A stretch of 19,738 nt of DNA from Candidatus Acetothermia bacterium. GTDB lineage: Bacteria > Bipolaricaulota > Bipolaricaulia > M55B111. The position numbers and the translations under genes are program-made. The DNA is taken from contig JBKGZT010000024.1 of NCBI GenBank assembly GCA_046543235.1, forward strand, positions 1 to 19,738, in the 5' to 3' direction. Position 1 is the first letter of the stretch. Each line of letters begins with the position of its first letter. The notes beneath the pieces are model-generated. The model was not told the DNA's origin, made no database searches, and was given only the letters and a program-made list of their open reading frames with translations. Positions 66 to 19,648 of this stretch are shown here, one piece after another.

Positions 66-677
66 TCAAATCGGTATTATCAAAAATATCAGAACGCTCC
101 AGACCGAATGCGAGATGACTACGGGCAGCAGTTCGCCCTCCCGCGCGTAGAACCAGCTCCATCCCAGCCCGGCTACGAGCGCGGCCACAACAAGCGTCAG
201 GTTGAGAGACCAGACGTGGACGATGGCATACAGCAATGCTCCTGCAAATATACCAATCAGCCCGCCGTAGTTGTCCTCCAGCCACCTTTGCACTGTACCG
301 CGCCAGAAGATTTCCTCTCCGGGACCGATAATGAGCGCCAGCAGAAGACCTATAATGGGCAGCGCTGCCGAATCGGTATTGCCGTAAACTTCGGCGATCT
401 CGCTTTCGGCAAATGGAATAATTTCCACTATCAATAAATTCCCAAGCCAGAACACCCCGTACAGCATAAGCGCAGAAACTACTCCTAAACCTACGTTTCT
501 CGCCGTCAATTCACCAAACGGCTTATAATTCTTCCAAGAAATCAGCGACGTTATAGCAAGTATCGCTACGGAACCGGCCATCTCCAGCCAGAAGTTAAAC
601 GGGTTCAGGTAAAACGACACGAACCAGAGCCCAAATGCCATGATTACCATGGATGGCACCGTAATACCTCTTTTCAT
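66..677 (-). CDS. CPBP-family (CAAX protease type II / Abi) intramembrane glutamic endopeptidase
   Basis: Multi-pass hydrophobic protein with the CPBP motifs GEEIFWRG, YAIVH and SHSVW. Start moved to the ATG at 677 (MKRGITV), just after the menA stop, with AGGA upstream. Confidence 0.85.
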   Translation of the reverse strand: MKRGITVPSMVIMAFGLWFVSFYLNPFNFWLEMAGSVAILAITSLISWKNYKPFGELTARNVGLGVVSALMLYGVFWLGNLLIVEIIPFAESEIAEVYGNTDSAALPIIGLLLALIIGPGEEIFWRGTVQRWLEDNYGGLIGIFAGALLYAIVHVWSLNLTLVVAALVAGLGWSWFYAREGELLPVVISHSVWSVLIFLIIPI

Positions 678-687
678 TCTTCCGTTC

Positions 688-1572
688 CTATAAGACAACT
701 TCAAGCAAAATCGAAACCGTCAACAAACCACTAAAGGCGACGTCAAGCCGGGCGGTTCGGGCGTCGGCATCGTCGGGTATCTCTTCGACGAAGGTCTTAA
801 GTAGCTTGTATGCCAGGGGGAAGGACAGGAACACAAGAGCGCCCCATGGGCTCAACACTTCCTCCAGGATCAAATAGCCAAGAACCGAATAAGTCCCGAC
901 GGTAATGAGCAGGTACAATACGACGGCGTCCCGTTTATCCAGCAGGTTTGCGATCGTGTTTACCCCGGCTTTTTGGTCGTAAACCCTGTCCCTCAAGTTA
1001 TTCGCCAGGAGAGTCAGGGCGACCAGCAGCCCCAAGGGGATCGATACGAGAAATGGCAGGACGCCGATAGAACCCGATTGTACGTAGTAAGCACCCGTGA
1101 CCAGGAGTGGTCCCCAGACCAGAAATACGGCCACTTCGCCCCAGCCCCAGTACTTGTATTTTACCCCGCCGGTGTAGGAGTAACCCAAGACCACTCCCAA
1201 TATACCGATGGCCAGAACCAGTGGGCCAGAAACGTACGTCAGGTATAAGCCGATAACTATTCCCACCAGGTACATCCCCGAAAAATACGCCCTTATCTCG
1301 TTCGGTTCAAACCACTCTTCTACGAGCGGCTGTTGCCTGTACCTAGTAGTCGGAGACCCCTCTCTGTCCACTTCTTCCCGGAAATCGTAGTAATCGTTCG
1401 TCAGGTTTACAGCTCCGTGCAGCATAACTGTTCCGATTGCAACGAGTACCAGACGTAGAGTGTGGAAACCTCCCGTTCTCGCCGCCAGCAGCGACCCCAC
1501 CAGCACAGAACCCAAAGTCATCGGGAAGGACCAGGGGCGGCTACTGATCAGCAGGGCCTTGGCTTTGTTCAT
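688..1572 (-). CDS. menA: UbiA-family prenyltransferase, 1,4-dihydroxy-2-naphthoate polyprenyltransferase (MenA-like)
   Basis: N-terminal SRPWSFP, Asp-rich motifs NLTNDYYD and ANNLRDRVYD, KYxGWGE, and several TM helices. GGAG RBS upstream. Confidence 0.85.
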   Translation of the reverse strand: MNKAKALLISSRPWSFPMTLGSVLVGSLLAARTGGFHTLRLVLVAIGTVMLHGAVNLTNDYYDFREEVDREGSPTTRYRQQPLVEEWFEPNEIRAYFSGMYLVGIVIGLYLTYVSGPLVLAIGILGVVLGYSYTGGVKYKYWGWGEVAVFLVWGPLLVTGAYYVQSGSIGVLPFLVSIPLGLLVALTLLANNLRDRVYDQKAGVNTIANLLDKRDAVVLYLLITVGTYSVLGYLILEEVLSPWGALVFLSFPLAYKLLKTFVEEIPDDADARTARLDVAFSGLLTVSILLEVVL

Positions 1573-1593: not shown

Positions 1594-2682
1594 TTAAGAG
1601 AAGTCATCAAATAGGATATCGTCCTCGTCAACGCCGTAATCCTTTAACAGATCGATCGTCGCATCCATCATCGGAGGAGGCCCACAGAGGTAACCCTCCA
1701 TGTCCCATTCCTCCTGGAGATAGTCGTCCATAACCTCGGTAATCAATCCTACTTCTCCATCCCATTCCGGCTGAGACGAGTCAAGGGCCGGAACGTAGTT
1801 AAAGTTTTCGTGTTCCTCGGCCAGTTCATGAAGGTCCTCGTGGTAGTAGAGATCCTCCCGGGTCCTGGATCCGTAGAAGAGCCAGATCTCTCGATCCGTC
1901 CCCTCTTCCAGTTCCGAGAAGACGATTGACCTCAGCGGAGCGAGACCGACTCCTCCAGCTACCCCAATTATCTTCGCGTCGGTGTCCTGAACGTAGAAAT
2001 CCCCGAAAGGTCCGGTAAATTCTACTTCCTCACCTTCTTCGAGCTCATGGAGATAAGTGGAACCCAGCCCCCCTTCGATCAACTGTACCGTAAGCATGAC
2101 CTCCTCATGGACGCTCTCTTCCGAAGCAATCGAGTAGGCCCTGTCCACGGTATCTCCATCCGCCGGGACTTGAACCTGAACGTACTGGCCGGCTTTGAAG
2201 TCGATCGTTTCGGGCTCCTTTAGGTCGAATATAATTTCCTTGATCGAGGGGGTGACATCTCTGGTGGAGAGAACCTCGGCCTGGTACTTCTCGACCTCGA
2301 GGTATTTTGGCTCTATTTCCACCTTCATGTCTTCCCGAACCTTGACCTGACAGCTCAGGCGTACGCCATTTACGAGCTCTTCCCTCGTAAGCATCGGCTC
2401 TTCAGTCGGAAGGACGGGACCGCCACCTTCTTTCACCCTGGCCGTACAAAAACCACAGCTTCCCTGCCCACCGCAGGCGGAGGGGATATAAATCTCGTTT
2501 TGGGTGAATGCCTGAAGGAGAGTCGAACCCCCCTCGACCACGAACTCCTCTTCCCCGTCGTTCACGTCAACTGTAACGTCCTCGTATTCGGCGAAGAGCT
2601 TGTTCGCAATTACTAGCACCACGGCCAGGGAGCCTGCAACTACGTTAAGTACAATTATCGGACTTACATAACCCATCATCAC
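1594..2682 (-). CDS. nqrF: NqrF-like NADH-oxidising subunit (N-terminal TM anchor, [2Fe-2S] ferredoxin domain, FAD- and NAD-binding domains)
   Basis: SACGGQGSCGFC...RLSCQ [2Fe-2S] motif, RAYSIA FAD motif, AGGVGLAP, YLCGPPPM and C-terminal FDDF. It lies directly after the nqrE-like gene. Confidence 0.85.
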   Translation of the reverse strand: MMMGYVSPIIVLNVVAGSLAVVLVIANKLFAEYEDVTVDVNDGEEEFVVEGGSTLLQAFTQNEIYIPSACGGQGSCGFCTARVKEGGGPVLPTEEPMLTREELVNGVRLSCQVKVREDMKVEIEPKYLEVEKYQAEVLSTRDVTPSIKEIIFDLKEPETIDFKAGQYVQVQVPADGDTVDRAYSIASEESVHEEVMLTVQLIEGGLGSTYLHELEEGEEVEFTGPFGDFYVQDTDAKIIGVAGGVGLAPLRSIVFSELEEGTDREIWLFYGSRTREDLYYHEDLHELAEEHENFNYVPALDSSQPEWDGEVGLITEVMDDYLQEEWDMEGYLCGPPPMMDATIDLLKDYGVDEDDILFDDFS

Positions 2683-2695
2683 GTCATCACTCCAG

Positions 2696-3277
2696 TTACT
2701 GTATTCCTACCATTCCGGAGAAACCGAGAAAGGCAAATGCCATAATCCCGGCTATCAACATCGTAATCCCCGGGCCCTGCAGGGGTTTCGGTACGTTCGC
2801 AAACCTCAGCTTTTCCCTGATAGAAGCCAAAGAAACTATGGCAACCATCCACCCGATCCCGCTACCGAGCGCGAAGATTATCCCGGTAAAGAAGGCGTAA
2901 TCCCTCAGTATCATGAACAGAGATACTCCCAGAATGGCGCAGTTTACGGTTATCAGAGGCAGGAAGACCCCCATAGTTGTATAAATGGAAGGGAAAAACC
3001 GCTCAATTACCATCTCAAGTACCTGAACGGTAGATGCGATAACTATTATGAAGGCGATGTACTGCAGGTACTCCAGTCCATAGGGAACCAGCAGGTAGTG
3101 GTAGACCGGCCAGTTGACTGCACTTGTAACCGTCATTACAAGGGTTACCGCAACTCCCATCCCCCATGCGGAAGAGAGCTTCTTGGACTGAGAAACGAGC
3201 GGGCACCAGCCAAGAAAATACCTGAGGGCGATGTTATGCGCGAATATAGCGGCAATAAGTATGGAAACGTATTGCAT
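2696..3277 (-). CDS. nqrE: NqrE / RnfA-family membrane subunit
   Basis: NIAL..FLGWCP, FLPLITVNCAILG and the NqrE-type C-terminus IREKLRFANVPKPLQGPGITM..AGIMAFAFLGFSG. Confidence 0.85.
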   Translation of the reverse strand: MQYVSILIAAIFAHNIALRYFLGWCPLVSQSKKLSSAWGMGVAVTLVMTVTSAVNWPVYHYLLVPYGLEYLQYIAFIIVIASTVQVLEMVIERFFPSIYTTMGVFLPLITVNCAILGVSLFMILRDYAFFTGIIFALGSGIGWMVAIVSLASIREKLRFANVPKPLQGPGITMLIAGIMAFAFLGFSGMVGIQ

Positions 3278-3278
3278 T

Positions 3279-3878
3279 CTACTCCTCCTCCACGGGCGAG
3301 ATAGATCTTTCGACCCAGATCAGCAAACCGAGCACCAGAAAACCGCCGGGGGCCAGGATCATGCTAACCCACGGCGTCCAATCTGCTCCAAGAACCGAGA
3401 CACCAAACAAAGTGCCAAACCCCAGAAGCTCCCTAACCACCGACATGGCAATCAGGGCAACAGCAAATCCGGACGCAACGCCGGCGGCATCGACGACCGA
3501 ATCCCAGGGCGAGTTCTCGCTGGAAAATGATTCGAGTCGGCCGAGAATTATGCAGTTCGTAATTATCAGCCCGACGTATGCACCCAGAGCTTCGCTTAGC
3601 GGCATGAGGAAGGCCTGCAGGAAGATATAGACGAGCGTGACAAAAGTAGCGATAACCAGCATGAAAACGGGTATTCGTACCCTTCTCGGTACGGAATCAC
3701 CAATGACGGATACGATAAAGGAGCTGGCCGTGAGGACGAAAAAGACTGCAACTCCCATAGTCACTCCGTTTGCTACCCTGTTCGTAATCGCCAGAGTTAT
3801 ACACAACCCCAACATCTGGCGGAATACCGGGTTATCCTCCCATAGTCCTGCCATAAAGATGTCTTTGGTGTTATTCAT
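3279..3878 (-). CDS. nqrD: NqrD / RnfE-family membrane subunit
   Basis: NPVFRQMLGLCITLA, YVGLIITNCIILGRLE, VRELLGFGTLFG and LAPGGFL. Confidence 0.85.
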   Translation of the reverse strand: MNNTKDIFMAGLWEDNPVFRQMLGLCITLAITNRVANGVTMGVAVFFVLTASSFIVSVIGDSVPRRVRIPVFMLVIATFVTLVYIFLQAFLMPLSEALGAYVGLIITNCIILGRLESFSSENSPWDSVVDAAGVASGFAVALIAMSVVRELLGFGTLFGVSVLGADWTPWVSMILAPGGFLVLGLLIWVERSISPVEEE

Positions 3879-4485
3879 TGCCCAAACCCTCCATCACTTC
3901 ACCTGTCAGCACTTGGTTCTTCATTTGATCCACTTCGTCGTTGACAATTTCCTGTACGGCCTTGCTGGTCCGGGTCGCCCCGGTAATACCGTCTACCTCG
4001 TTTTCTCCTTCAGCGCCGCCCTGGACGATCCTCAATTCGGGCCGTACCTTCTTTCCGTCAAACTGATCGAGGAACCAATCCTCGGTGATCCTCGCTCCCA
4101 GACCCGGCGTCTCCTGCTGGCTCAGTATCTCCAATCCGACCACTGTCTCCAGGTCGGGCTTGAACGAGATTATTCCCTCGATCTGACCCTGGAATCCGGA
4201 ACCGGTCAACCTAAAGCTTATCGAGCTCAACTCTCCGGAGTCATCGTAGCGGAAGTACACGTCCCGGCCGTCTATCGTTTTGGATTCAAACTCGGACTTG
4301 AACTTCTCCTCCAGGTTTTCATCCGTATAATTAACCTTGGCCGACTTCAGCACGGACTCTCGTAGCTTCCTGGCCTGGTTCGCCTGTATTATCGGCCTGG
4401 TAGTGACGTTGACAAAACCCAGGACAGCAGCGCTTACCGTCGCAACCAGGACAAGTACCGTCACCATCCATATTTCTTTCTTCAT
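3871..4485 (-). CDS. nqrC: NqrC / RnfG-family FMN-binding subunit
   Basis: N-terminal TM helix, GSGFQGQI, ETPGLGARI and the covalent FMN motif DGITGATRTS. Confidence 0.85.
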   Translation of the reverse strand: MKKEIWMVTVLVLVATVSAAVLGFVNVTTRPIIQANQARKLRESVLKSAKVNYTDENLEEKFKSEFESKTIDGRDVYFRYDDSGELSSISFRLTGSGFQGQIEGIISFKPDLETVVGLEILSQQETPGLGARITEDWFLDQFDGKKVRPELRIVQGGAEGENEVDGITGATRTSKAVQEIVNDEVDQMKNQVLTGEVMEGLGNE

Positions 4486-4500
4486 TTTATCACCGTTACC

Positions 4501-5586
4501 TTATTTATAAGGTTTCTGAACTGGTCCAAACCGGAAAGTTATAACCATCTCATCCATCAGCGGAGCGAACATGTTCATAAGGAGGATTGAGAACATCACT
4601 CCCTCGGGGTAGCCGGAGAAAGCCCTCACGGATACCGTCATCACGCCGAGAAATACCCCGTACACCCAGCGGCCTTCCTTAGTGGTTGGCGAAGAGACGG
4701 GGTCTGTAGCCATGAACATGGCCCCAAACATCAGCCCACCCGCAAGCAACTGGAATACGGGAGGGGCAACCTGGTTTGGCCAGAGGTAGGTTCCAAGCAA
4801 CGAATACAGAAAAACCGAGCCCAGATAAGAAACCGGAATTCGCCAATCGATGATCTTCGTCATAATGAGAAATATCCCGCCAAGAATTACCAGCAAGGCG
4901 GAGGTTTCACCCAGACACCCGGGTATCGTACCGAAGAAGAGCTCCCGAAGAGGTGCGAGGGTTCCATCGTTGGCAAAAGAACCGAGGGGCGTAGCCGTGG
5001 TGGTAGCATCCACGCCGTATCGGGTAAAGCCCGCCCATCCTCCTGTAACCGGCTTTATCCACTCAGAAGACATTGCTACTGGAAAGGTCACGGTCAGGAA
5101 GACCCGGCCGACGAGCGCCGGATTGAATATGTTATACCCGGTACCGCCGAAGACCTCCTTACCAATGATGACCCCGAATATTATCCCGACCGCTACCATC
5201 CACAGCGGGGTACTCGGGGGCAGAATCAGGGGAAAGAGTATACCGGTAACCAGGAACCCTTCGGTTATCTCCTCCTTTCTGATCAGGGTAAACGTCACCT
5301 CGGCTATCCCACCTGCGACGTAGGATACTACGATCATCGCCAGAGCCCGCCACCCGTAGAAATAGATCGCCGCCAGCGTGGCAGGAAGTACCGCTAAAAC
5401 TACGGCAAACATATACCGTTTGATCTCTATATAGTCACGCAAAAAAGGACTCTCCGAGGCGGCTTCTCCTTGGTGAAAGACTATTGCCCGGATCGTCTCG
5501 ACTACTTCGGTTATATGCTTGAGATAGGGGTGACCTTCCGTATACTCTGCGAGATCCGACATCAGTTCGTCTAGTTTATTCAACAT
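4501..5586 (-). CDS. nqrB: NqrB / RnfD-family membrane subunit
   Basis: EGFLVTGILFPL, KEVFGGTGYNIFNPALVGR, FMN site DATTTATPL, PGCLGETS, FMATDPVS and YPEGVMFSILLMN. The N-terminal extension (PFLRDYIEIKRYM) resembles NqrB. Start set at the ATG at 5586 behind GAGGTG. Confidence 0.85.
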   Translation of the reverse strand: MLNKLDELMSDLAEYTEGHPYLKHITEVVETIRAIVFHQGEAASESPFLRDYIEIKRYMFAVVLAVLPATLAAIYFYGWRALAMIVVSYVAGGIAEVTFTLIRKEEITEGFLVTGILFPLILPPSTPLWMVAVGIIFGVIIGKEVFGGTGYNIFNPALVGRVFLTVTFPVAMSSEWIKPVTGGWAGFTRYGVDATTTATPLGSFANDGTLAPLRELFFGTIPGCLGETSALLVILGGIFLIMTKIIDWRIPVSYLGSVFLYSLLGTYLWPNQVAPPVFQLLAGGLMFGAMFMATDPVSSPTTKEGRWVYGVFLGVMTVSVRAFSGYPEGVMFSILLMNMFAPLMDEMVITFRFGPVQKPYK

Positions 5587-7069
5587 CTTCACCTCTATCT
5601 TGGTTTAGTCCAAGTTCAGCAGGTTTTAGCCCTTCCTCGGTTTCTTCGTACTTAACGTAGTTATCGATTTCCCCTGGCTGGGATTTCTTAGCGTCTTTCA
5701 GCGTCTCGCTCAAAGGTAGCTTGGACGGGCAGACGTAAGAGCACAAGCCGCAATCCACGCAGCGCTGAGGCTGGAGCCTGTTAACCTCGTCCACCATGTC
5801 GTGAGTATGAGTCTTGTATATCTGGAAGGGTAGGATGTCCACAGGACAGACTTCGCTACAGTAGCCACAATAGACACATGGTCTTTCCTCGCCGTGGAGC
5901 CCCGCATCTGACTTCTTCTTTTTATCGGGGAAAAGGGCAGACAGAAAGGCGTTGGTGTAAGAGTTCTTGGTCAACCCCGTCTGGATCCAGGCCAGCGTAT
6001 CGGTCTCCTTCGGCTCCTCAAGGCGGGTGAGAGAACTGTTCCCTTTGCCAACCGGTATATCAAGGTCATCCAACCTGATCCCGGTTAATGCTCCTCCGAG
6101 TATGTTCACATAGTCACCGTCCGTAGAGATATCGCTCCTTATAACTCTTCCCAGAGAACTACCAATTGGAACTTCGTAAAGGGCAGAATTTGCCCCTGGC
6201 CCGGTCAGACTAAACCTGTTCCGGACAAAAGGTACGCCCTCTTCCACGACTCGATAAGTTAGCAGAGGTACCAGTTCGTCCAGAGCGAGTATTCCGTGCT
6301 CGAGCAAAAAGCCCCCGGCATCCAGCCCCTCGACTCCCAATAGATCTCGGGCCAGGTACTTCGATTGATCCAGGTAACTTTCTCCGCTTACGGCATGAAC
6401 TTTGATCCTCTGACCCGACCCCATATCTTCCATCTCCCGGTAGGTCTCTTCGTCCAGAGCGAAGTGCAGCTGTGCATCCGGAAAACTTCGGGCAAGAATT
6501 CTAAGTCCCTTTTTGAAACTGGAAAGCTCATCTCCGTAATTAACCAGATGCCTGGCGAATGGAGAAATCCTAACTCCGTTTATCAGAATGGAATTGACGC
6601 TATCGGGCGGGAAATATGAGCTATTGAATTCGGTTGGAATCCCGGTCTGCCCAAAACCGGTAACTCCCCCCAGGTAAAGCAACTCCCTTAAGTTGGCGGG
6701 CTCTTCCTTCTCCCAGCTCACACCCTTTCCGGTAAGCTCCAGTCCCCCTTCCGCAGCAATTTTTACGGCAGGGATCATGTCATCAAGCCACTCCAGGGTT
6801 TCCTCGTGAAAGTATTCCAGTTCAACGATCTCCGCTACTTCGCCGTTCACGCTGGAATGAACCGGGGTGGATAGGGAGTTGTCATTGCGGGCAATTATCT
6901 CCCCCGCCTCGACTTTCTCTCCTTCACCTACGGATGGTTCCAGGGCAGACCCAAAGCCTCCTTTCAACGGTATAACCACTTCGTCCAACTTGCTAACCCT
7001 TCTAAAGGTCAGCTCGTCGTCCTCGTCCAGCTGGGTAAGATCTAAGCCAAATGTGTTCACTGTATTCAC
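5576..7069 (-). CDS. NqrA/RnfC hybrid subunit with two C-terminal [4Fe-4S] motifs
   Basis: RnfC/NqrA N-terminal barrel (VVIPL..GFG...V..GEKV..GE.IA...PVHSSVNGEV), an NqrA-like segment WIQTGLTKNSYTNAFLSALFP...LHGEER, and CVYCGYCSEVCP plus CVDCGLCSYVCP. The start is either the GTG at 7069 or the GTG at 7060 (behind GGTGA). Confidence 0.8.
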   Translation of the reverse strand: MNTVNTFGLDLTQLDEDDELTFRRVSKLDEVVIPLKGGFGSALEPSVGEGEKVEAGEIIARNDNSLSTPVHSSVNGEVAEIVELEYFHEETLEWLDDMIPAVKIAAEGGLELTGKGVSWEKEEPANLRELLYLGGVTGFGQTGIPTEFNSSYFPPDSVNSILINGVRISPFARHLVNYGDELSSFKKGLRILARSFPDAQLHFALDEETYREMEDMGSGQRIKVHAVSGESYLDQSKYLARDLLGVEGLDAGGFLLEHGILALDELVPLLTYRVVEEGVPFVRNRFSLTGPGANSALYEVPIGSSLGRVIRSDISTDGDYVNILGGALTGIRLDDLDIPVGKGNSSLTRLEEPKETDTLAWIQTGLTKNSYTNAFLSALFPDKKKKSDAGLHGEERPCVYCGYCSEVCPVDILPFQIYKTHTHDMVDEVNRLQPQRCVDCGLCSYVCPSKLPLSETLKDAKKSQPGEIDNYVKYEETEEGLKPAELGLNQDRGEDVE

Positions 7070-7315: not shown

Positions 7316-7343
7316 ATTATAGATAAGAAGGTTCCTTTGTCAA
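7316..7343 (-). promoter_or_regulatory. Sigma-70 promoter of the nqr-menA operon
   Basis: Minus strand has a perfect TTGACA (7338-7343), a 16-nt spacer and TATAAT (7316-7321). A Rex-like half site TTCACAA follows immediately (7308-7314). Confidence 0.75.
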
Positions 7344-7458: not shown

Positions 7459-8466
7459 TTATCCAGAGATAGCCTCCCCAAGATAGCTTTCCCCTTTTAC
7501 CTCCCCACCACTCACGTATCTCGTTATTGACTCAAGTGCCTCCCTTGATTCACAGGCGATCCCTTCTGGCAGGGATTCTATCGCTTTATCGGCAAATAGT
7601 CTGGAGTAATCAACCGTCCTGTCAACTGCAGCGGAGCTCTTAATTATCCTTATCCCTTCCCTTATCTCTTCCTCCGAAGGATCCTCTTTTCGCAGGAGTT
7701 TTCTGAGGAAACTACCACGGTTCCCTTCCTCCAGAGCGATCATTGTGGGCAAAGTAAGGGTGCCCTCTTTCAAGTCGTTGCCGGGTTCTTTACCCAGTTC
7801 GTCCCGCCGCCCGATGAGGTCCTTCAAATCGTCGGCAATCTGGAAGGCAAGCCCAAGGTTGAGACCGAACTTTTCCATTCTGGCTCTCTCCCCTTCGTCG
7901 GCACCGGAAGCCTTGGCACCGAGCAGACAGCTCTTGCCCATTAAGAGAGCCGTCTTGTGACGAATGACTCTCAGGTAATCCATGAAGGAGAGGGTCGTCT
8001 TTCTTCGATATACCGTCTGGGAGGCCTGACCCCTGGTCATCCCCAGAGCCGCCTCCAGGAGGTGTTTCAGGTACTTACTATCCTCCAGTTTTGTCAGAGA
8101 GTTGGCGGCAAAGGTGTAGAGTAGATCGCCGCTCAAAACGGCAACCTTGTTGCCCCACTTGTAGTTCACCGCTTCCTTTCCCCTCCGTAGATCGGAATCG
8201 TCGATAACGTCGTCGTGAACGAGAGAAGCCATGTGAACGAACTCAACCGCGATCGCGAGCGGCCGAGCCTTTTCGAAGTCGTAGTCGAACATCTTTCCCG
8301 AAAGCAACACAAGGGCTGGCCTCAGCCGCTTTCCACCGGAATTTAACAGGTAAGAGGAACTATCCGTCAGCGGCTCGAGGTTGGAGTCGACGAGCTCTTC
8401 CAGCTCTCTTTCAAGCTCGCTTAAATCCTCCTCTATCGGCCCCAGCAGCTTAAGCATCGTCGTCAT
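7459..8466 (-). CDS. Long-chain trans-polyprenyl diphosphate synthase (HepT/IspB-like)
   Basis: GGKRLRP, FARM ASLVHDDVIDDSDLRRG, KTALL, SARM AFQIADDLKD and GKEPGNDLKEG. Start set at the ATG at 8466 behind GGAGG; the ATG at 8457 is an alternative. Confidence 0.9.
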   Translation of the reverse strand: MTTMLKLLGPIEEDLSELERELEELVDSNLEPLTDSSSYLLNSGGKRLRPALVLLSGKMFDYDFEKARPLAIAVEFVHMASLVHDDVIDDSDLRRGKEAVNYKWGNKVAVLSGDLLYTFAANSLTKLEDSKYLKHLLEAALGMTRGQASQTVYRRKTTLSFMDYLRVIRHKTALLMGKSCLLGAKASGADEGERARMEKFGLNLGLAFQIADDLKDLIGRRDELGKEPGNDLKEGTLTLPTMIALEEGNRGSFLRKLLRKEDPSEEEIREGIRIIKSSAAVDRTVDYSRLFADKAIESLPEGIACESREALESITRYVSGGEVKGESYLGEAISG

Positions 8467-9190
8467 CGATACTCGTTCCTCCCTCTCCACAGTGGATAGC
8501 AGCTACTCCCCCCAGTAAGTTCTCGTAACGCACGTTAATCAACCCGGATTCTTCTAAAATCTTCTTCAAGTCTTCCTGATCCGGGAACTTCCTGACTGAT
8601 TCCGTAAGGTAGCGGTAGGGCGCCGTGCTTCCGTGTATGACTCCACCGACCAGCGGCATAATGTAGTTGAAGTAAATAGAATAGAAGTGGCGAAATACCG
8701 GAACCGTCGGGCTAGAAAGTTCGAGGTTTACCACTTTTCCTCCTGGTTTCACTACTCGTTCCATTTCCGAAACTACGGATTCGATGCTTTCGACATTTCT
8801 CAATGTAAAAGCCGAAGTCACGAGGTCAAAGTAATTCGTGGGGAAATCCAGCGACTCTCCCCTACCCTCGATAAACCTGACCCTGGAGCTATACCGAGAG
8901 GGTAGACCCTCCCTGGCCCTTTCAATCATCTCCGGGGTAATATCTACCCCCACTATCTCTTCAACTGGAAGGTGATCAGCCATTAAACGGGTAAGTTGTC
9001 CCGTCCCGCATCCTATTTCCAGAACTCTCCCTCCTTCCGCCGTAGGAGCTTTTTCGACGAGCTCGTTTCTCCAGCGTCCGATCTGGCCAAACGATATCAC
9101 CGTGTTGACCCGGTCGTAATTCCGGGCAATATCGGTGAATATCTTTTTGACTCTTTCGTTCTTGCTTTCGTAGTCCCTGGTATGATTCAT
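8450..9190 (-). CDS. menG: Demethylmenaquinone methyltransferase (MenG/UbiE family)
   Basis: VKKIFTDIARNYDRVNTVISFG, SAM motif VLEIGCGTG, FTLRNV, RVVKPGG and YRYLTESVRKFP. Confidence 0.9.
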   Translation of the reverse strand: MNHTRDYESKNERVKKIFTDIARNYDRVNTVISFGQIGRWRNELVEKAPTAEGGRVLEIGCGTGQLTRLMADHLPVEEIVGVDITPEMIERAREGLPSRYSSRVRFIEGRGESLDFPTNYFDLVTSAFTLRNVESIESVVSEMERVVKPGGKVVNLELSSPTVPVFRHFYSIYFNYIMPLVGGVIHGSTAPYRYLTESVRKFPDQEDLKKILEESGLINVRYENLLGGVAAIHCGEGGTSIDDDDA

Positions 9191-11182: not shown

Positions 11183-11200
11183 TTGTGTGAACTATCACAA
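11183..11200. promoter_or_regulatory. Rex operator upstream of rex (autoregulation)
   Basis: 18-bp imperfect palindrome TTGTGTGAACTATCACAA versus the consensus TTGTGAA-N4-TTCACAA. It lies just after a CATAAT -10-like hexamer and before the rex RBS. Confidence 0.7.
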
Positions 11201-11215
11201 AGGGTGAAAAAGCTT

Positions 11216-11842
11216 TTGAGTAGACCGGAGTTCCCAAGAGAGACGATTAGAAGACTGCCACTCTACCTCAGGTGTCTCAACCGGCTGTTAATTCTGGGAG
11301 AAAAAACTCTTACCTCCAAGGAGCTTTCAGAATACCTGGGGGTAAAACCGGCCCAGTTAAGAAAGGACTTTTCATATTTCGGCGACTTCGGAACCCGGGG
11401 GGTCGGTTACGACCTGGAAAACCTCGTAAGCGAGATCAGGAGCATCCTGAGACTTGAAAAAGAATGGGAACTTGCCGTTGCCGGCATTGGAAACATCGGC
11501 GACTCCATTCTCGATCACCTTGAATTCAACCAACCTGGTTTCCGGATTACGGCGGCTTTTGACGAGGAACCCAAAATTATTGGCTCAACAGTTAGAGGAA
11601 TTAAAGTTCAAAACGTCTCGGAAATAGAAGAAGCTCTATCCGGAAATGAGATCCAGCTGGCCTTGCTCGCTGTATCTTCGGTCGAAGCCAGGAAGGTCGC
11701 TAACTCTCTTGTCAGCGCCGGAGTCAAGGGAATTATCAACCTCGCGCCGATATTCCTCAACCTGCCGGAAGAAATAGAAGTCGCGCAGATGGATCTATCC
11801 AGCGAGCTGGGACAGCTCGTTTACAACCTGAGAAAAAAATAA
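11216..11842 (+). CDS. rex: Redox-sensing transcriptional repressor Rex
   Basis: ETIRRLPLYLRCL, QLRKDFSYFGDFGTRGVGY winged helix, Rossmann motif AGIGNIG and GVKGIINLAP. Probable start is the TTG at 11216 behind AGGGTGA; the GTG at 11204 is an alternative. Confidence 0.93.
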   Translation: MSRPEFPRETIRRLPLYLRCLNRLLILGEKTLTSKELSEYLGVKPAQLRKDFSYFGDFGTRGVGYDLENLVSEIRSILRLEKEWELAVAGIGNIGDSILDHLEFNQPGFRITAAFDEEPKIIGSTVRGIKVQNVSEIEEALSGNEIQLALLAVSSVEARKVANSLVSAGVKGIINLAPIFLNLPEEIEVAQMDLSSELGQLVYNLRKK

Positions 11843-12175: not shown

Positions 12176-12193
12176 ATGCGAAAGTTTTCACAA
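12176..12193. promoter_or_regulatory. Rex operator overlapping the predicted psr transcription start
   Basis: ATGCGAAAGTTTTCACAA matches 12 of 14 conserved positions of TTGTGAA-N4-TTCACAA and begins 2 nt after the -10 box. Confidence 0.75.
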
Positions 12194-12302
12194 CCTCTTA
12201 TATTTTCAAGGTTTATGTTTAAAAACTGCGTATATTCACCGGTGACACGCCACTATGACAAACGGAGAGAGCGCTAAAACAAAACAGATCTACGGGGATA
12301 CC

Positions 12303-12953
12303 ATGAAAAAAACAATCAAGGATTGGCGACCCGTCCTGTATAAATTGGCCGCAACCGGTTTCTCCTATCCCGGCCTCCCTCTTGCAGAATCCCTTACCTC
12401 CGGAAAGTTCCTTTTCGGTATGGAAAAGATCTCCAAAGGTTATCAGCTTGGACTCGGAGCCGAAATAAGAGAGGTCGAGAAAAACCTATCAACTGAAAAC
12501 CCCAAGGAACTTCTCGGAGTACTCGAAAGCGAGTACGTAAGGCTATTTCTGGCCGACGTAGGAGGGGCAAAGGTAAATCCCTTTGGCTCTCACTACCTAG
12601 ACGGCAGAGTCATGGGTAAAAGCGTTGATAAGGTCGTTAGAAAATTCGGCAGGGCCGGAATGGCCAAACGGGAGGGCTACCAGGGTCCGCCGGACGATAT
12701 TGCAGTCGAGCTCGAGTACTTGTTCAAGGTTACACAAATGGAGGACAAAAGCTCCCCTAAACACCTTTCCGAGCACGCCGACTTCTACGACGAACTACTC
12801 GGCCCGTGGCTGGGGGAGTTTACCGAGGCGGTAAAGAACGAAACCGACATGGAATTCTACGCGGTACTGGCGGACTGGGTTTGTAAGGGGCTGGAAGCCG
12901 ATCGAGAACTAATCGAAAACCTTCTCAAGGAAGGAAATATCCGTGGAGTTTGA
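12303..12953 (+). CDS. TorD/DmsD-family molybdoenzyme maturation chaperone
   Basis: EYVRLF, NPFGSHY, PPDDIAVELEYL, LGPWLGEF and FY..LA. It sits directly upstream of a Tat-exported molybdoenzyme. Start set at the ATG at 12303 behind GGGGA. Confidence 0.8.
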   Translation: MKKTIKDWRPVLYKLAATGFSYPGLPLAESLTSGKFLFGMEKISKGYQLGLGAEIREVEKNLSTENPKELLGVLESEYVRLFLADVGGAKVNPFGSHYLDGRVMGKSVDKVVRKFGRAGMAKREGYQGPPDDIAVELEYLFKVTQMEDKSSPKHLSEHADFYDELLGPWLGEFTEAVKNETDMEFYAVLADWVCKGLEADRELIENLLKEGNIRGV

Positions 12954-12991
12954 GAGGAAAATAACCACGATCAGGGGGTAACAAAGTCAAA

Positions 12992-15283
12992 ATGACCGAA
13001 TTCAACAGAAGAGATTTTCTCAAGCTTTCTGCCGCAACTGCCGGTGCTCTCGCCCTTCAGGGTACGGGGATTATGGAGGACCGAGAGGTCAGGGCCGCAC
13101 CCAACTACTGGTGGGAGGAAGAAACCTCCACCAAGTTCAGCTATTGCGACATGTGCTACTGGAACTGCGGAATAAAAGCGGAAGTAACCGACGGTCGAGT
13201 TGCGAAAATTTACGGCGACGAGAACGACCCGCTTAGCCAGGGCAATCTTTGCCCAAGGGGGCAGGCCGGAGTCCGACAGGTATACAACCCTGATAGGTTA
13301 AAGCAACCTATGATAAGTACCGGGGAGCGAGGAGAAAAAAAGTACAGAAAGGCGAGCTGGTCCGAAGCCCTCGACTACACGGCCGAGCAGCTCCACAAGG
13401 TCAGCGAAGACTGGGACGGCCCCGAGTCAATCGCCTGGCTGAATCACTGTACCAGCGGCTCCTGGTTTAGCCATATAGCCGCCGCCTGGGGAAGCCCGAA
13501 CACAGGCGGTCCCGCACATTCACTCTGCCTCGGCTCCCGTGAGATCGCTTCCCAGTTGACCTTCGGTTTACCGGTTGGCGAGCACATGCCGGTGGATTGG
13601 GAAAACACAAAATTTATTACCTTAATCGGAAACCATATCGGGGAAAACACTCACAATACTCTGATGAAGGATTTCATGAGTGCAGTAGACGGGGGTGCCG
13701 GACTTGCTGTGGTCGATCCCCGCTACTCTACCCCGGCAAGCAAGTCGGACTACTGGTTGCCGATCAAACCCGGTACGGACACGGCACTCCTACTTTCCTG
13801 GATAAACCTCTTGATCAGGGAAAACCGCTACGACAGGAACTACGTGGAAGAGTACGCGACCGGTTTCCAGGAACTGAAGAATCGGGTTCAGGATTACACG
13901 CCGGAATGGGCAGCTGAAATAACGGACCTCGAGCAGAGAAAGATAGAAGAGGTCGGAAGGGAAATGGCTCGTTACCGACCACACGCTGTCGTTCCTCCAA
14001 ACAGGAAGGCCTCCTGGTACGGCAACGATACTCAGAGATTGAGGGCACTTTTCATCCTCAACGCCCTGCTCGGCAACTACGGCCGTGAAGGTGGTTTCTA
14101 CTTTAGCTCGGAACCCTGGATTGAGGATTACTCCTTCCCCTCCATGAAACTCGACAACTCCGGAGGCGGCTGCGGCGGAGGCGGGGGCGCTCTCGGAGAA
14201 GATACTTTACCGGAAGACGTCAGGGATAGAGCTGATAGAAAGGGCGAGAAGTTCCTCTACGGCAGCCTGTCCGAGCCGGAGTTGATCGAAGCAATGGCCT
14301 CCGAGGATCCCTACCCGATAAAGGGGCTCGTCGTTACGGGGAATAATATATTCCACTCCGCCCCGAAAAAGGAGAGGACCAAGGAAGCCCTGAAAAACCT
14401 TGACTTTTACATGGCGATGGATATATTGCCTCAGGAACACGTGATGTGGGCTGACGTGGTGCTGCCGGAATCGACCTACCTGGAACGCTATAACGACTTA
14501 TTTATCGGCCATCATAAATCCACCCCCTTCATAAGTTTTAGAGAACCGGCAGTTGATCCTCTCTACAACACCAAGCCAGGCTGGTGGATAGCGAAGGAAC
14601 TGGGTGAGAGGCTCGGATTCGGGGAGTACTTCCCTTTTGACGATTTCGAGGAATACCTCAACGAAAGGCTCGATCCCCTCGACCTTTCCGTCGAGGACAT
14701 GAAGGAAAAAGGAAGGGCCAAACAACCCCAGTTAAGCCAGCCCTACCTGGAGGATTTCGAATCTCAAAATCAGGATCCACCTTTCGGGACGCCCAGCGGA
14801 AAAATCGAACTATACTCGGAGCGGCTCGAGGAGAACGACCTGGATCCCGTCCCCACCTATGAGGACCCGGAAGAGCCTCCGGATGGGTTTTTCAGGCTCC
14901 TGTACGGTCGTTCCCCGGTCCACTCGTTCTCGCGTACTCAGAACAACTCCTGGCTTTCCGAAGTCGATCCGGAAAACGAGGTCTGGATCAATTCCGAAGC
15001 CGCCGAGGAGTTGGGATTGGAAGGAGGAGAATACGTGGTACTGGAGAATCAGGACGGGAATAAGTCGAGGCCGATTAAAGTCAAGAAGACCGAGAGGATC
15101 CGTGACGACTGTGTTTACATGGTCCACGGTTTCGGACACGACACCCCGGAAATGGAGAGACAGGACGGTAAGGGGGCAAGCGACATTGAGATGCAGAGCG
15201 ATTACGCACTCGATCCCATCTCCGGATCGGTGGGAATGAACGTAAATTACGTCAGGGTAGCAGAGAGAGGAGGTATTTCCTGA
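12992..15283 (+). CDS. psrA: Polysulfide/thiosulfate reductase catalytic subunit (PsrA/PhsA-type bis-MGD oxidoreductase)
   Basis: Tat signal NRRDFLK, FS0 motif CDMCYWNC...LCPRG, Cys metal-ligand region HSLCLG, GNHIGENTHN, ADVVLPESTYLER, TPSGKIEL and a C-terminal MGD domain (GRSPVHSFSRT, VYMVHGFG). Confidence 0.88.
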   Translation: MTEFNRRDFLKLSAATAGALALQGTGIMEDREVRAAPNYWWEEETSTKFSYCDMCYWNCGIKAEVTDGRVAKIYGDENDPLSQGNLCPRGQAGVRQVYNPDRLKQPMISTGERGEKKYRKASWSEALDYTAEQLHKVSEDWDGPESIAWLNHCTSGSWFSHIAAAWGSPNTGGPAHSLCLGSREIASQLTFGLPVGEHMPVDWENTKFITLIGNHIGENTHNTLMKDFMSAVDGGAGLAVVDPRYSTPASKSDYWLPIKPGTDTALLLSWINLLIRENRYDRNYVEEYATGFQELKNRVQDYTPEWAAEITDLEQRKIEEVGREMARYRPHAVVPPNRKASWYGNDTQRLRALFILNALLGNYGREGGFYFSSEPWIEDYSFPSMKLDNSGGGCGGGGGALGEDTLPEDVRDRADRKGEKFLYGSLSEPELIEAMASEDPYPIKGLVVTGNNIFHSAPKKERTKEALKNLDFYMAMDILPQEHVMWADVVLPESTYLERYNDLFIGHHKSTPFISFREPAVDPLYNTKPGWWIAKELGERLGFGEYFPFDDFEEYLNERLDPLDLSVEDMKEKGRAKQPQLSQPYLEDFESQNQDPPFGTPSGKIELYSERLEENDLDPVPTYEDPEEPPDGFFRLLYGRSPVHSFSRTQNNSWLSEVDPENEVWINSEAAEELGLEGGEYVVLENQDGNKSRPIKVKKTERIRDDCVYMVHGFGHDTPEMERQDGKGASDIEMQSDYALDPISGSVGMNVNYVRVAERGGIS

Positions 15284-15846
15284 TGACCAGTTACGCGCTA
15301 GCAGTTGACTTGAAAAAGTGCGTGGGCTGTAAGGCCTGCGTGATTGCGTGCAAGGCAGAAAACGAGGTCCCCGATGGCGTATTTCGCCTGACTACCTACG
15401 AAGTCGAGAAGGGATCATTTCCCGAAGTCGATACGGAATTAAGACACGATCAATGCAGGCACTGTGAAACCGCACCCTGCGTTTCCGTCTGCCCCACAAA
15501 GGCCAGTTACACGGACGATGAAGGGTTTGTTCGAATTGATTACTCAAAGTGTATCGGGTGCAAGGCCTGCATGGTGGCCTGCCCTTACGATGCCCGCTTC
15601 ATCAACCCGGAAGGCGGCTACGCCGACAAATGTACTTACTGTATTCACAGGGTCAAGGAAGGTAAGGACCCCGCATGCGTCAATACCTGCCCGACCGGCG
15701 CGAGGGTCTTCGGGGACCTGGACGACCCAGACAGCGAGATAAGAAAGAGGATCCGGAACAACAGGGTGTCGGCACCCAAGGAGGAAGCGGGCACAAAGCC
15801 CAAATTCTATTACCTAAACAAAGAACTAGAGGAGGTGAAGACCTAA
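15283..15846 (+). CDS. psrB: Four-cluster Fe-S subunit (PsrB/NrfC type)
   Basis: CVGCKACVIAC, CRHCETAPCVSVCP, CIGCKACMVACP and KCTYC...PACVNTCP. TGATG overlap with psrA. Confidence 0.9.
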   Translation: MTSYALAVDLKKCVGCKACVIACKAENEVPDGVFRLTTYEVEKGSFPEVDTELRHDQCRHCETAPCVSVCPTKASYTDDEGFVRIDYSKCIGCKACMVACPYDARFINPEGGYADKCTYCIHRVKEGKDPACVNTCPTGARVFGDLDDPDSEIRKRIRNNRVSAPKEEAGTKPKFYYLNKELEEVKT

Positions 15847-16700
15847 TGGAAATTAGTGTCGCAAACGGCATACAGCATATCTGGGAGTGGCCGGTCGCTC
15901 TACATTTCGTCCTCTCCGCACTTGTCGGTGGCCTGATTGGAATTGCCGGCTTCTCCAGGTTGATAAACAGGGATCAAGCAGCCAGAGTCGCCACGTATAT
16001 TGCTTTCCCACTTCTGATAGTCGACCTACTGATTCTTTGGCTGGACTTAACCAGGGGTCTGCTTGCGTTCTGGTTGTTTCTCAGCTTTAGAGCAACGGCC
16101 GCCATCAGCTGGGGATCCTGGGCCCTGCTGCTGACTTCGCTCGTGAGCGTTATCTACCTGGCCGAATACTTAGGTTATCTAAAACTTCCCCGGGCCGCTG
16201 ACAACGTGATCAACTGGAGCGCCATGGGGCTGGCGATCGCAGTTACCACCTATACCGGAGCCATGCTCACTTCAAGTATGGCGGCAATGCCTCTCGCGAG
16301 TTCAATGCTGCTCGCTCCCCTCTTCTCTGTCTCCGCGATCGCGATGGCCGGCGGTTTGCTTGAACTGGTCAACGTGGAGCGAACGATTTCCGCCTGGGCT
16401 CTTACGATCGCTTCAGTCGCGTCCGCCGTTCTATTCGGTTTTTACGTGGGAGAGTTATACGGCGGGAACCTTTCGGTGCAGGAAGCCTACGCCCACCTGG
16501 TCGGAAACTACGGGCTGATATGGTGGCTAACAATCGGTATCGGCTTCGGCCTGCCGGCAGTGCTGGCGGTGGCCTGGATGACTTCCCAGACTCAAAGAAA
16601 AAAGCTCATCTGCTGTGTCACAAAGGCTGTTGCACTATTTTCACTATTTGGCGGAGCAGGTATTAGGTTTGTTCTTTTAATGGCCGGACAGGGCCATTAA
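15846..16700 (+). CDS. psrC: NrfD/PsrC-family quinol-oxidising membrane anchor
   Basis: Real start is the ATG at 15846 (TAATG overlap with psrB, GAGGAGG upstream). Motifs WEWPVALHF, LWLDL, SWGSW, TYTGAML and GIRFVLLMAGQ; about 8 TM helices. Confidence 0.85.
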   Translation: MEISVANGIQHIWEWPVALHFVLSALVGGLIGIAGFSRLINRDQAARVATYIAFPLLIVDLLILWLDLTRGLLAFWLFLSFRATAAISWGSWALLLTSLVSVIYLAEYLGYLKLPRAADNVINWSAMGLAIAVTTYTGAMLTSSMAAMPLASSMLLAPLFSVSAIAMAGGLLELVNVERTISAWALTIASVASAVLFGFYVGELYGGNLSVQEAYAHLVGNYGLIWWLTIGIGFGLPAVLAVAWMTSQTQRKKLICCVTKAVALFSLFGGAGIRFVLLMAGQGH

Positions 16701-16737
16701 GAAAATCAATCAAAGGCACATCTGGAGGTGTGCAGAC

Positions 16738-17196
16738 TTGAACACTTTTAGCAGGAAAACTCTGTCAGTACTGACGCTCTTTCTTGTAGTGCTATTTGCT
16801 GGCTCTCTGGCAGTTACGGCTCAGGAGGAGCCCGTAGTTGGCGCAGTGGACGAATTTCTAAACGATGTCCACGAGGAGGGCTTTTACCTGGCGGACCAGG
16901 AGGAGGTCAATAAACAGCGGAAGGTAAGACCGAACCTCTTTATCCTGGACGTAAGGACTCCGGGCGAAGTAGAGGAAGGAACCGTCCCCGGAGCCACGAC
17001 CATCAGGCTCAGTGAACTCGCACGGAGCCTGGACGAACTGCCCGAGGACAAGGACACCACCATGTACGTTTACTGCAAGGGCGGGGACAGAGCAGCCTAC
17101 GCAGTTGCTATTCTCCATACTCTCGGATACACTGAGGCATACAGCATGGGCGGCTTCGTCGACTGGAAGGAAGCCGGCTACCCGGTAGAAGAATAA
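16738..17196 (+). CDS. Exported single-domain rhodanese / polysulfide sulfurtransferase (Sud-like)
   Basis: TTG start behind GGAGGTG, Sec-type signal peptide (..SLAVTA-QE), ILDVRTPGE, active-site loop YCKGGDRA and GGFVDWKEAGYPV. Confidence 0.85.
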   Translation: MNTFSRKTLSVLTLFLVVLFAGSLAVTAQEEPVVGAVDEFLNDVHEEGFYLADQEEVNKQRKVRPNLFILDVRTPGEVEEGTVPGATTIRLSELARSLDELPEDKDTTMYVYCKGGDRAAYAVAILHTLGYTEAYSMGGFVDWKEAGYPVEE

Positions 17197-17825: not shown

Positions 17826-17839
17826 CAGTTACCCTGCTT

Positions 17840-19591: not shown

Positions 19592-19648
19592 CCTGCCACC
19601 TCCTGTTTTGAGTATTGTAAGCGAATTGGCCGAACATCGCAAAAGAAC

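Follow-up and report, generated by a model that had tools for sequence, protein, structure and literature searches.

The window analysed here is an entire contig of Candidatus Acetothermia (Bipolaricaulota), 19,738 bp long (contig C4 of a 1.32-Mb assembly, G000, in 97 contigs and 87% complete). It carries on its minus strand, within positions 1594-7069, six genes in the order nqrABCDEF. We think it fairly likely that this operon encodes an NQR-type redox-driven ion pump of an early-branching lineage, with an iron-sulfur A subunit and a quinone as acceptor (NQR, Na+-translocating NADH:quinone oxidoreductase). Judged by its A subunit and by curated score cut-offs, it is such an early-branching variant and not a canonical NQR, and it most probably works as NQR does. 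The finding bears on how NQR arose. In the published account, a duplicated rnf operon lost RnfB and gained an FNR-type reductase while RnfC decayed to a cofactor-free NqrA; in the passages cited, that account rests on the comparison of two end states (PMC4014512, PMC12174285, PMC9588780). The model in PMC4014512 has the RnfC cofactor sites lost after RnfB, and the part of that paper cited here shows no intermediate.

The operon and its subunits

All six open reading frames (ORFs) were confirmed, with neighbouring genes overlapping or at most 21 nt apart, and family scans gave the order RnfC/NqrA, RnfD/NqrB, RnfG/NqrC, RnfE/NqrD, RnfA/NqrE, NqrF. A preliminary description of this DNA had recorded six genes in nqrABCDEF order with no RnfB, and this held: neither the family scans nor the Pfam scans found an RnfB-like gene in the operon. 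Together with a UbiA-family gene and a CPBP protease gene, the six form a tight array of eight genes on the minus strand:

5576..7069, minus strand: subunit A, 497 aa, a homologue of RnfC and NqrA that combines an RnfC_N barrel, an insert of NqrA type and, at the C-terminus, a 2x[4Fe-4S] ferredoxin domain (NCBI and Pfam scans, PDB matches, motif table, fold)
5843..5878, minus strand: first CxxCxxCxxxCP motif of A, residues 398-409 (motif and conservation)
5726..5761, minus strand: second CxxCxxCxxxCP motif of A, residues 437-448 (motif and conservation)
4501..5592, minus strand: subunit B, 363 aa, NqrB/RnfD (family scores, alignment to Vibrio cholerae NqrB and Clostridium tetanomorphum RnfD)
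3871..4485, minus strand: subunit C, 204 aa, NqrC/RnfG, with N-terminal anchor, FMN_bind domain and flavinylation motif DGITGAT (family scores, Pfam)
3279..3878, minus strand: subunit D, 199 aa, NqrD/RnfE (Rnf-Nqr family, RsxE subfamily)
2696..3277, minus strand: subunit E, 193 aa, NqrE/RnfA (nqrE and rnfA models)
1594..2682, minus strand: subunit F, 362 aa, compact NqrF (TIGR01941, Pfam, alignment to 8a1t_F)
688..1572, minus strand: UbiA-family MenA-like prenyltransferase, 21 nt 3' of F (TIGR00751 menA, synteny)
66..704, minus strand: CPBP/Rce1-like intramembrane protease, final gene of the array (family scans; follows MenA in L010, L011, L012 and L014)

Locus numbers of this form denote operon-bearing stretches fetched from other genomes.

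Textbook NqrA is described, in the passages cited, as free of cofactors, with neither FMN nor Fe-S (PMC12174285, PMC9588780). Subunit A of the window falls outside that definition, having an RnfC_N domain followed by a Fer4_7 / 4Fe-4S dicluster domain (Pfam) with two complete CxxCxxCxxxCP motifs; the Complex1_51K Pfam domain has no match in it. All eight cluster cysteines (C398, C401, C404 and C408 of the first motif; C437, C440, C443 and C447 of the second) are invariant in a set of 18 relatives and the genome's own RnfC, and the relatives that share them are only 32-71% identical to A. In score, A lies below both curated families, at 158.6 bits for rnfC (cut-off 245.95) and 83.7-117.5 bits for the nqrA models (cut-offs 321-450; 83.7 against 321.05). 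Its best PDB matches are RnfC chains (7zc6_C, E 2.6e-25), and NqrA (7xk3_A) matches at E 6.8e-11 over residues 281-459 only. The fold of an AlphaFold model is likewise nearest to RnfC (TMq 0.66-0.69) and next to NqrA (0.58); the AF2 model is good for residues 14-353, and its pLDDT below 50 over the ferredoxin domain makes it uninformative on cluster geometry.

An RnfC, for its part, is recognised by a site for NAD+ and FMN and by two [4Fe-4S] clusters. Both cluster motifs are present in A. Aligned to C. tetanomorphum RnfC, however, the motif NAAECEPY falls on NGVRISPF and the FMN loop GMGGATFPT on GFGQTGIPT, and because of these changed residues the NAD site of A looks lost and its FMN loop altered. 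An RnfC-type FMN pocket is kept in changed form, with Y132, G135, G143, P145 and S151 of A invariant, and an NqrA-type insert adjoins the first cluster motif. Neither the pair of RnfC-type 4Fe-4S motifs nor the lost NAD motif had figured in the preliminary description.

Only F exceeds its NCBI Nqr equivalog cut-off (TIGR01941 nqrF, 307.4 bits against 295). It consists of an N-terminal hydrophobic helix, read from the sequence, and Fer2, FAD_binding_6 and NAD_binding_1 domains; its four cluster cysteines, RAYS motif, NAD loop and C-terminal DDF align with V. cholerae NqrF (8a1t_F), of which chain residues 8-175 and 210-406 match F residues 9-175 and 181-361. About 34 residues of the FAD domain are missing relative to V. 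cholerae NqrF, which is why F has only 362 residues; the earlier reading of F as a short [2Fe-2S]/FAD/NAD reductase with a transmembrane anchor was thus correct. Subunits A-E score between the Nqr and Rnf models. B gave 319.2 bits for nqrB (cut-off 349.9; the nqrB models gave 319-328, all below cut-off) and 297.2 for rnfD (cut-off 207), C 84.5 for nqrC (144) and 104.3 for rnfG (102), D 183.3 for nqrD (244.85), 194.4 for NqrD (235) and 205.1 for RsxE (184), and E 228.3 for nqrE (247.55) and 209.8 for rnfA (229.3).

The predicted cofactor sites of NQR can be followed through these subunits as covalent-FMN motifs in B and C and the riboflavin aspartate in B. DATTTAT, the flavinylation motif of B, is similar to the one in RnfD, and the residues of B that align with V. 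cholerae NqrB G140/G141, E144, D346 and D397 are all kept. The Gly-Gly pair (G140/G141), which we take to be linked to quinone binding, occurs in the window, in most operons with an iron-sulfur A and in 9 of 12 canonical NqrB proteins, and is missing from all four Rnf operons and from L042 and L079. D and E have two cysteines each in their translations, presumably placed where the ligands of the membrane [2Fe-2S] cluster are expected. D346 is given as a riboflavin ligand in the part of the V. cholerae study cited (PMC10643135).

B and C are both small. At 363 aa, B exceeds the RnfD of the same genome (318 aa) by 45 aa and falls short of the 395-442 aa of canonical NqrB, so its description as compact stands; the NqrB-like N-terminal extension also ascribed to it corresponds to a weak alignment (E 0.035) of residues 30-93 with the N-terminal arm of V. 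cholerae NqrB. C was called RnfG-sized and is: canonical NqrC has 253-282 aa, save one ORF call of 644 aa, and C is nearest to RnfG among the sequences compared.

Distribution, phylogeny and order of change

A word-indexed HMMER search with A found 419 proteins at E <=0.001, and all 120 homologues among those listed have 4Fe-4S Pfam domains. Identity to A is 55-74% within Bipolaricaulota and then 31-37% in Omnitrophota, Planctomycetota and Poribacteria. These proteins are annotated inconsistently, as '4Fe-4S dicluster domain-containing protein' by NCBI and as 'RnfC' or 'NqrA' by JGI. We also scanned one genome per species with patterns taken from the two cluster regions of A. This gave at least 600 stretches, of which at least 587 were confirmed and the best 80 kept, and the iron-sulfur-A form is therefore widespread, at no fewer than 587 loci. 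Both cluster motifs are present in every A of the best 80 loci, as follows from a search built on the cluster regions. In 63 of these 80, A is followed by B, D and E. Of these, 47 have all of A-F with an F of at least 300 aa, nine have a shorter F match (three of them of a 149-aa type) and seven have no F match; contig ends may account for some of the short or absent matches. An RnfB-like gene is found in just one of the 63, L042.

An independent view, with no cysteine requirement, came from searching 251 Planctomycetota and 251 Desulfobacterota genomes with the nqrA model. Planctomycetota gave 31 matches at 390-593 bits, 14 at 83-136 and one partial at 205; Desulfobacterota gave three at 473-514, four at 260-310, five at 96-122 and one partial at 205. 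Twelve of the canonical, high-scoring operons were fetched and A was recovered in 11, none of which has a complete cluster motif. All four of the mid-tier Desulfobacterota A genes (260-310 bits), one of them L087, have both.

Several variant operons turned up in these searches. L035:7071-13700 and L040:14173-17328, and also L018, L032, L039 and L084, are iron-sulfur-A operons with an altered F, which is either a helix with a [2Fe-2S] domain (149 aa) or a NuoE-like fusion (319 aa). Near the operon, L035 and L040 have a gene of about 600 codons that is NuoF-like (Complex1_51K + NADH_4Fe-4S + Fer4), and L018 and L084 have one of similar size with an rnfC-like BLAST match; it looks as though such operons have exchanged their NADH input module. 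L083, L087, L073, L086, L065 and L116, from Desulfobacterales and one unclassified organism, have B, C and F of canonical size and yet both cluster motifs in A, with near-canonical nqrA scores where these were measured (the mid tier above).

For phylogeny, separate MAFFT alignments of B, D and E were concatenated to 750 columns, and A was deliberately excluded. A quick tree (IQ-TREE, LG+C20 PMSF) of 59 operons, from which 24 near-duplicate or incomplete ones had been removed beforehand, was rooted on four Rnf operons. It forms a ladder that begins with Rnf and then L042 + L079, passes through the window clade, an Omnitrophota/Spirochaetota/Elusimicrobiota clade and L058 (mutually unresolved), and goes on to L051 + L057, a compact Planctomycetota clade, a Desulfobacterales iron-sulfur clade and, last, canonical NQR. 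In a careful maximum-likelihood tree of 40 operons over the 750 columns (support as ultrafast bootstrap / SH-aLRT), the window clade is sister to all other NqrF-bearing operons (99/98), L042 + L079 are sister to all NqrF-bearing operons (99/96), and canonical NQR is nested behind branches with support of 100/99, 96/95, 100/100 and 100/99. The iron-sulfur-A operon L083 sits inside the canonical clade in both trees. A single clade of the 41 iron-sulfur-A operons was rejected, being 222 log-likelihood units worse (approximately unbiased (AU) test, p-AU 5.8e-49).

In the sister group of all NqrF-bearing operons (L042:9821-16581 and L079:1-3809), A still scores above the rnfC cut-off (313 bits) although the NqrA-type insert is present. 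The sixth gene is chimeric, joining a membrane helix to an NqrF-like [2Fe-2S] domain and two PF04060 domains of RnfB type; the seventh combines a [2Fe-2S] domain with about 270 residues that match nothing in Pfam. A reading of L042 as an operon with 'RnfB plus NqrF' is rejected by the domain scans, in which the sixth gene is this chimera and the seventh is only Fer2 by Pfam.

Characters that were not part of the tree data (the FMN loop and Fe-S motifs of A, the insert of F and the sizes of B, C and F) change in the order of the tree:

Rnf: FMN loop GxGGAxFP; AECEPY-like NAD motif in 2 of the 4 shown; no NqrA-type insert; both cluster motifs in the genome's own RnfC and in L120, one complete motif in L119 and in L121
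Window clade: FMN loop full length, changed (GxxGIPT); NAD motif lost; insert present; both cluster motifs; median B, C and F of 363, 204 and 360 aa
Omnitrophota/Spirochaetota/Elusimicrobiota clade: motifs of A as in the window clade; medians 356, 193 and 356 aa
Compact Planctomycetota clade: FMN loop short, NqrA-like; NAD motif lost; insert present; both cluster motifs; medians 364, 212 and 364 aa
Desulfobacterales type: motifs of A as in the compact Planctomycetota clade; medians 394, 245 and 456 aa (F 405-586 aa, inflated by long ORF calls)
Canonical NQR: FMN loop short; NAD motif lost; insert present; first cluster motif lost, second a remnant; medians 409, 261 and 410 aa

The FAD-domain insert of F, of about 30 residues, is confined to the last two types. 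By sequence, these results support the view that the window operon belongs to an early-branching living lineage of NQR type, with canonical NQR nested in a grade of iron-sulfur-A forms. The preliminary description had proposed an Rnf-to-NQR intermediate, a proposal to be dropped if all subunits nested within canonical Nqr or Rnf clades. In the tree of B, D and E they do not, and the proposal stands in part, as an early-branching living lineage.

Viewed against known systems, the operon is a mixture. It shares with V. cholerae NqrABCDEF (7XK3, 8A1T) the gene order, the domains and ligand residues of F, the residues of B named above, the flavinylation motifs of B and C, and, in A, the NqrA-type insert and the alignment over residues 281-459. 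It differs from it in the two complete 4Fe-4S motifs and the full-length, RnfC-like FMN loop of A, in the scores of A-E, in B, C and F being about 45, 55 and 50 aa shorter than canonical, and in an anaerobic setting with naphthoquinone-type genes instead of ubiquinone. With the Rnf complexes of C. tetanomorphum (7ZC6), Acetobacterium woodii (9ERI) and Azotobacter vinelandii (8AHX) it has in common the order rnfCDGEA, an A nearest RnfC by sequence and fold with both clusters' motifs, an RnfG-sized C and an RnfD-type flavinylation motif in B. Unlike them, it has NqrF in the place of RnfB, the lost NAD motif and altered FMN loop, the NqrA-type insert in A and the NqrB-type Gly-Gly in B, and its genome has a true Rnf elsewhere. 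The iron-sulfur-A operons of Omnitrophota, Planctomycetota, Spirochaetota, Desulfobacterales and others (L016-L089) share with it two 4Fe-4S motifs in A and an NqrF-type last gene. Here the differences are that the window clade branches first, has the longest RnfC-like FMN loop (in common with the Omnitrophota clade) and has a synteny of its own, in which UbiE, polyprenyl synthase, the operon, the MenA-like gene and CPBP stand beside Rex and a B12 radical-SAM gene.

Quinone genes and other redox complexes

Upstream of the operon, the rest of the contig reads as follows:

7316..7343, minus strand: perfect sigma-70 consensus, TTGACA-16 nt-TATAAT, 12/12 matches, about 250 nt upstream of A in the 390-bp gap that precedes it (consensus match only)
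7459..8490, minus strand: long-chain polyprenyl diphosphate synthase (family scans, synteny)
8450..9190, minus strand: UbiE/MenG-type quinone C-methyltransferase (TIGR01934, 222.2 bits, cut-off 158.35)
9432-11138, plus strand: B12-binding radical-SAM protein (TIGR04190, 603 bits; family scan)
11183..11842, plus strand: Rex, an NADH/NAD+-sensing repressor (NF003995, 235.2 bits, cut-off 126)
12255..17196, plus strand: Psr/Phs-type reductase cluster (PhsA, NrfD and NrfD_2 matches)
17544-19642, minus strand: aldehyde:ferredoxin oxidoreductase (AFOR_N + AFOR_C), then a ThiS-family protein (domain scan)

The MenA-like gene is narrowly over the TIGR00751 menA cut-off (109.8 against 102.15 bits), with the higher-scoring NF004617 'prenyltransferase' below its own, and no other UbiA-family gene was found in the assembly. 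The arrangement UbiE, polyprenyl synthase, A-F, MenA-like, CPBP recurs in L010, L011, L012 and L014, and as far as F in L013; A-F occur together with a MenA-like gene and a polyprenyl synthase in four Omnitrophota/Elusimicrobiota loci (L019, L021, L023 and L045). Eleven of the 12 genomes of the window's genus have the A gene.

The Psr/Phs cluster comprises genes for a TorD-like chaperone, a TAT-exported molybdopterin subunit, a 4Fe-4S subunit, an NrfD-type membrane subunit (the only NrfD-family gene found in the assembly) and a rhodanese. The molybdopterin subunit is nearest to PhsA, at 484.2 bits and below the cut-off of 694, and the cluster is likely to be a quinol oxidiser. All genes linked to quinones that were found in the assembly, for the families searched, lie on the window contig; we read this as a path from NADH by way of quinone to a sulfur compound. 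A quinone acceptor for the window complex is thus supported by its gene context.

Rex adjoins the operon in L010-L014 and stands directly upstream of A in L017 and L045; in L014, TorD and PsrA come after it. With a Rex-box consensus, the window gave three matches at <=3 mismatches against 0.69 expected, a count that 6 of 200 shuffles reach. One of them, with two mismatches to that consensus, lies at 12176-12193, just upstream of the TorD-like gene of torD/psr. No match lies upstream of A, and Rex control of the nqr-like operon was set aside on so weak a scan. The TIGR04190 radical-SAM gene adjoins ubiE and Rex in the window and in L010-L014, and its product might modify the quinone.

Elsewhere in the genome, contig C47 has a complete Rnf, missed in the preliminary description: rnfD, rnfG, rnfE, rnfA and rnfB together with an rnfC that converges on them, each scoring above its Rnf cut-off (530.6 bits for rnfC). 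This locus contains the genome's only RnfB over cut-off, and a tblastn search with all subunits found no Rnf/Nqr-type locus in the assembly other than C47 and the window operon. Contig C40 (L125:1323-12091, minus strand) has an Mbh/Mrp-type complex with NiFe large-subunit-like, NuoB/C/H-like, MbhD/E, MnhB and MnhE modules; upstream of it are an FNR-like gene and Fe-S genes. Complex I was considered as a second quinone reductase and ruled out, the only NuoH-like gene of the assembly being that of the C40 cluster. Cytochrome bd was not found in the assembly. Taken together, the contig suggests a compact respiratory chain from NADH to a sulfur compound, beside Rnf and an Mbh-type complex, in a bacterium with a small genome.

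The soluble proteins of the window are strongly acidic (F, pI 4.05 with 21.5% D+E; A, pI 4.59), and the window DNA is present in sequencing runs from a hypersaline lake and from microbial mats; these two observations fit a salt-in halophile. No RNA run is among those listed for the window.

Proposed working, alternatives and meaning

In the working that we propose, NADH would be oxidised on F, whose FAD would pass electrons to its [2Fe-2S] cluster and so to the membrane [2Fe-2S] cluster held by D and E. From there they would go to the covalent FMN of C and on to B, first to its FMN and then to its riboflavin, and this flow would pump Na+ or H+ out of the cell, as happens in Vibrio NQR and in Rnf. 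The acceptor would most likely be a prenylated naphthoquinone, whose last synthetic steps would fall to the MenA-like, UbiE/MenG and polyprenyl synthase enzymes encoded beside the operon, and the quinol may be re-oxidised by the Psr/Phs-type reductase of the same contig. Overall this would amount to a short respiratory chain from NADH to a sulfur compound under Rex control. A would still bind two [4Fe-4S] clusters inherited from RnfC, its NAD site gone, and these probably stay wired to the riboflavin of B, either on the way out to quinone or as an electron reserve off the path. The gene content, motifs, phylogenetic position and synteny are observed, and the cofactor binding, NADH:quinone activity, ion pumping and link to Psr are deduced.

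A number of results weigh against this. Five of the six subunits (A-E) are under the NCBI Nqr equivalog cut-offs, and cluster binding, activity and ion specificity are read solely from motifs. Among 21 related genomes, the window's own included, where MenA-like, UbiE and polyprenyl synthase genes occur, none has MenB over cut-off or a match to PF02621 (MqnA/MqnD) of the futalosine pathway; this suggests salvage of the naphthoquinone head group, a different head group or an unfamiliar route. The menaquinone acceptor of the preliminary description accordingly has the gene context (MenA-like, polyprenyl synthase, UbiE, Psr/Phs) on its side and this double absence against it. The ApbE flavin transferase (PF02424) has no match in the 87%-complete assembly, a result to be set beside its presence in 8 of the 21 related genomes and 4 of the 12 of the same genus; the genome's Rnf would need ApbE too. 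As to the trees, only three genomes supply the four Rnf operons of the outgroup, whose branches are very long (1.2-1.7). The stem of the window clade is long too (0.64), which makes attraction toward the outgroup possible, and the canonical references are 12 genomes of Planctomycetota and Desulfobacterota only, picked by the nqrA cut-off. The monophyly test was chosen after the tree had been seen, with its group defined by the feature itself.

A bolder claim can be built on the same data, and we hold it only tentatively: that the iron-sulfur-A operons are a living series from Rnf to NQR, with the Bipolaricaulota form as the earliest NqrF-bearing step sampled. First NqrF would have taken over the position of RnfB; loss of the NAD site of RnfC, shortening of the FMN loop and growth of B, C and F would have followed in that order, and loss of the clusters would have come at the end. 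In the early forms, electrons would still run from riboflavin to the acceptor through the two [4Fe-4S] clusters of A, so that quinone or another acceptor would be reduced at A; direct transfer from riboflavin to quinone at the NqrB rim would have arisen later.

Another way to view the clusters, which seems to us rather unlikely, is that in the same complex they are a working exit to a soluble or protein acceptor above the potential of NADH, or that reduced ferredoxin enters at A. The invariance of the eight cysteines across such divergent relatives, and the 4Fe-4S domains of the 120 homologues listed, argue for selection on the clusters, and the invariant pocket residues indicate that the FMN pocket is not simply decaying. 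The failure to find a naphthoquinone-ring pathway points the same way, as do published accounts of 'NqrBCDEF without NqrA', which in the passages cited call the acceptor unknown (PMC4148951). However, in two distant clades the MenA-like gene and polyprenyl synthase accompany the operon, with UbiE as well in the window clade, B has both the NqrB-type Gly-Gly and the riboflavin ligand, and no candidate partner gene is conserved beside A. In V. cholerae, moreover, the quinone is placed at the NqrB rim, 11.6 Å from riboflavin, in the part of the study cited, a distance for which no extra wire is needed (PMC10643135).

The basal position itself could be an artefact, an explanation we judge improbable. 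The operon would then be a derived NQR: either its A took an RnfC ferredoxin domain back from rnfC by recombination, or its sequences evolve fast and were drawn to the Rnf outgroup. The branch lengths given above would allow it, L083 shows an iron-sulfur A inside the canonical clade, and the genome's own rnfC could have served as donor. Yet the tree was made from B, D and E, without A, and it orders the forms as the motifs of A and the insert of F do. Window A is only 23% identical to the genome's RnfC, and beside its first cluster motif it has the NqrA-type insert found in all other iron-sulfur-A proteins and in canonical NqrA. Canonical NqrA retains a remnant of the second motif in the same place, as expected for loss and not gain, and a single iron-sulfur-A clade was rejected by the AU test.

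It is very improbable that the operon is an ordinary Rnf, a ferredoxin:NAD+ oxidoreductase that borrows the RnfB of C47 and uses F as an accessory: A, C and D do score as well or better on Rnf as on Nqr models and the genome does have an RnfB, but this reading is rejected because C47 carries a full rnf locus of its own over Rnf cut-offs; the preliminary description had named as a refutation an rnfB elsewhere that associates with the complex, and the one found sits in this locus. In addition, A lacks the NAD motif, F stands in the input position above the NqrF cut-off, and RnfB-like genes are almost absent from the 63 B/D/E operons. A canonical NQR that had been misread was also considered, and is ruled out by the cut-offs, motifs and trees. 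We thus return to the early-branching, NQR-type pump with an iron-sulfur A as our preferred reading.

Similar atypical operons in some anaerobes were mentioned in the preliminary description; the only reports we found that could correspond to them are the following. 'NqrBCDEF without NqrA' is reported for Pseudothermotoga thermarum, P. lettingae and Clostridium ultunense, which, in the portions cited, are like our organism anaerobes with Rnf and an Nqr-like operon, with A unrecognised and the acceptor called unknown (PMC4148951, PMC5924567). By analogy with the window-type A, named '4Fe-4S dicluster' by NCBI, an iron-sulfur A gene could have been overlooked there. Segatella (Prevotella) bryantii, a strict anaerobe, is described in the passage cited as having a menaquinone-reducing NQR that feeds a quinol-dependent terminal reductase (PMC12174285). 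The literature regards that enzyme as a canonical NQR of six subunits. In the main texts of the openly available papers searched, we found no description of an Fe-S-bearing NqrA or of an rnfC-like gene paired with NqrF; papers on metagenome-assembled genomes among them give just 'Nqr'. With A named so inconsistently by NCBI and JGI, genome papers may report such operons as 'Nqr' or as 'Nqr lacking NqrA', and the annotation may hide the family in genome surveys.

The wider significance is that intermediate states of the origin of NQR exist in living genomes, in an order on which the tree and independent insertions and deletions agree. The order of the changes, the use of menaquinone by early NQR and the role of the clusters of A thus become experimental questions that can be put to extant proteins.

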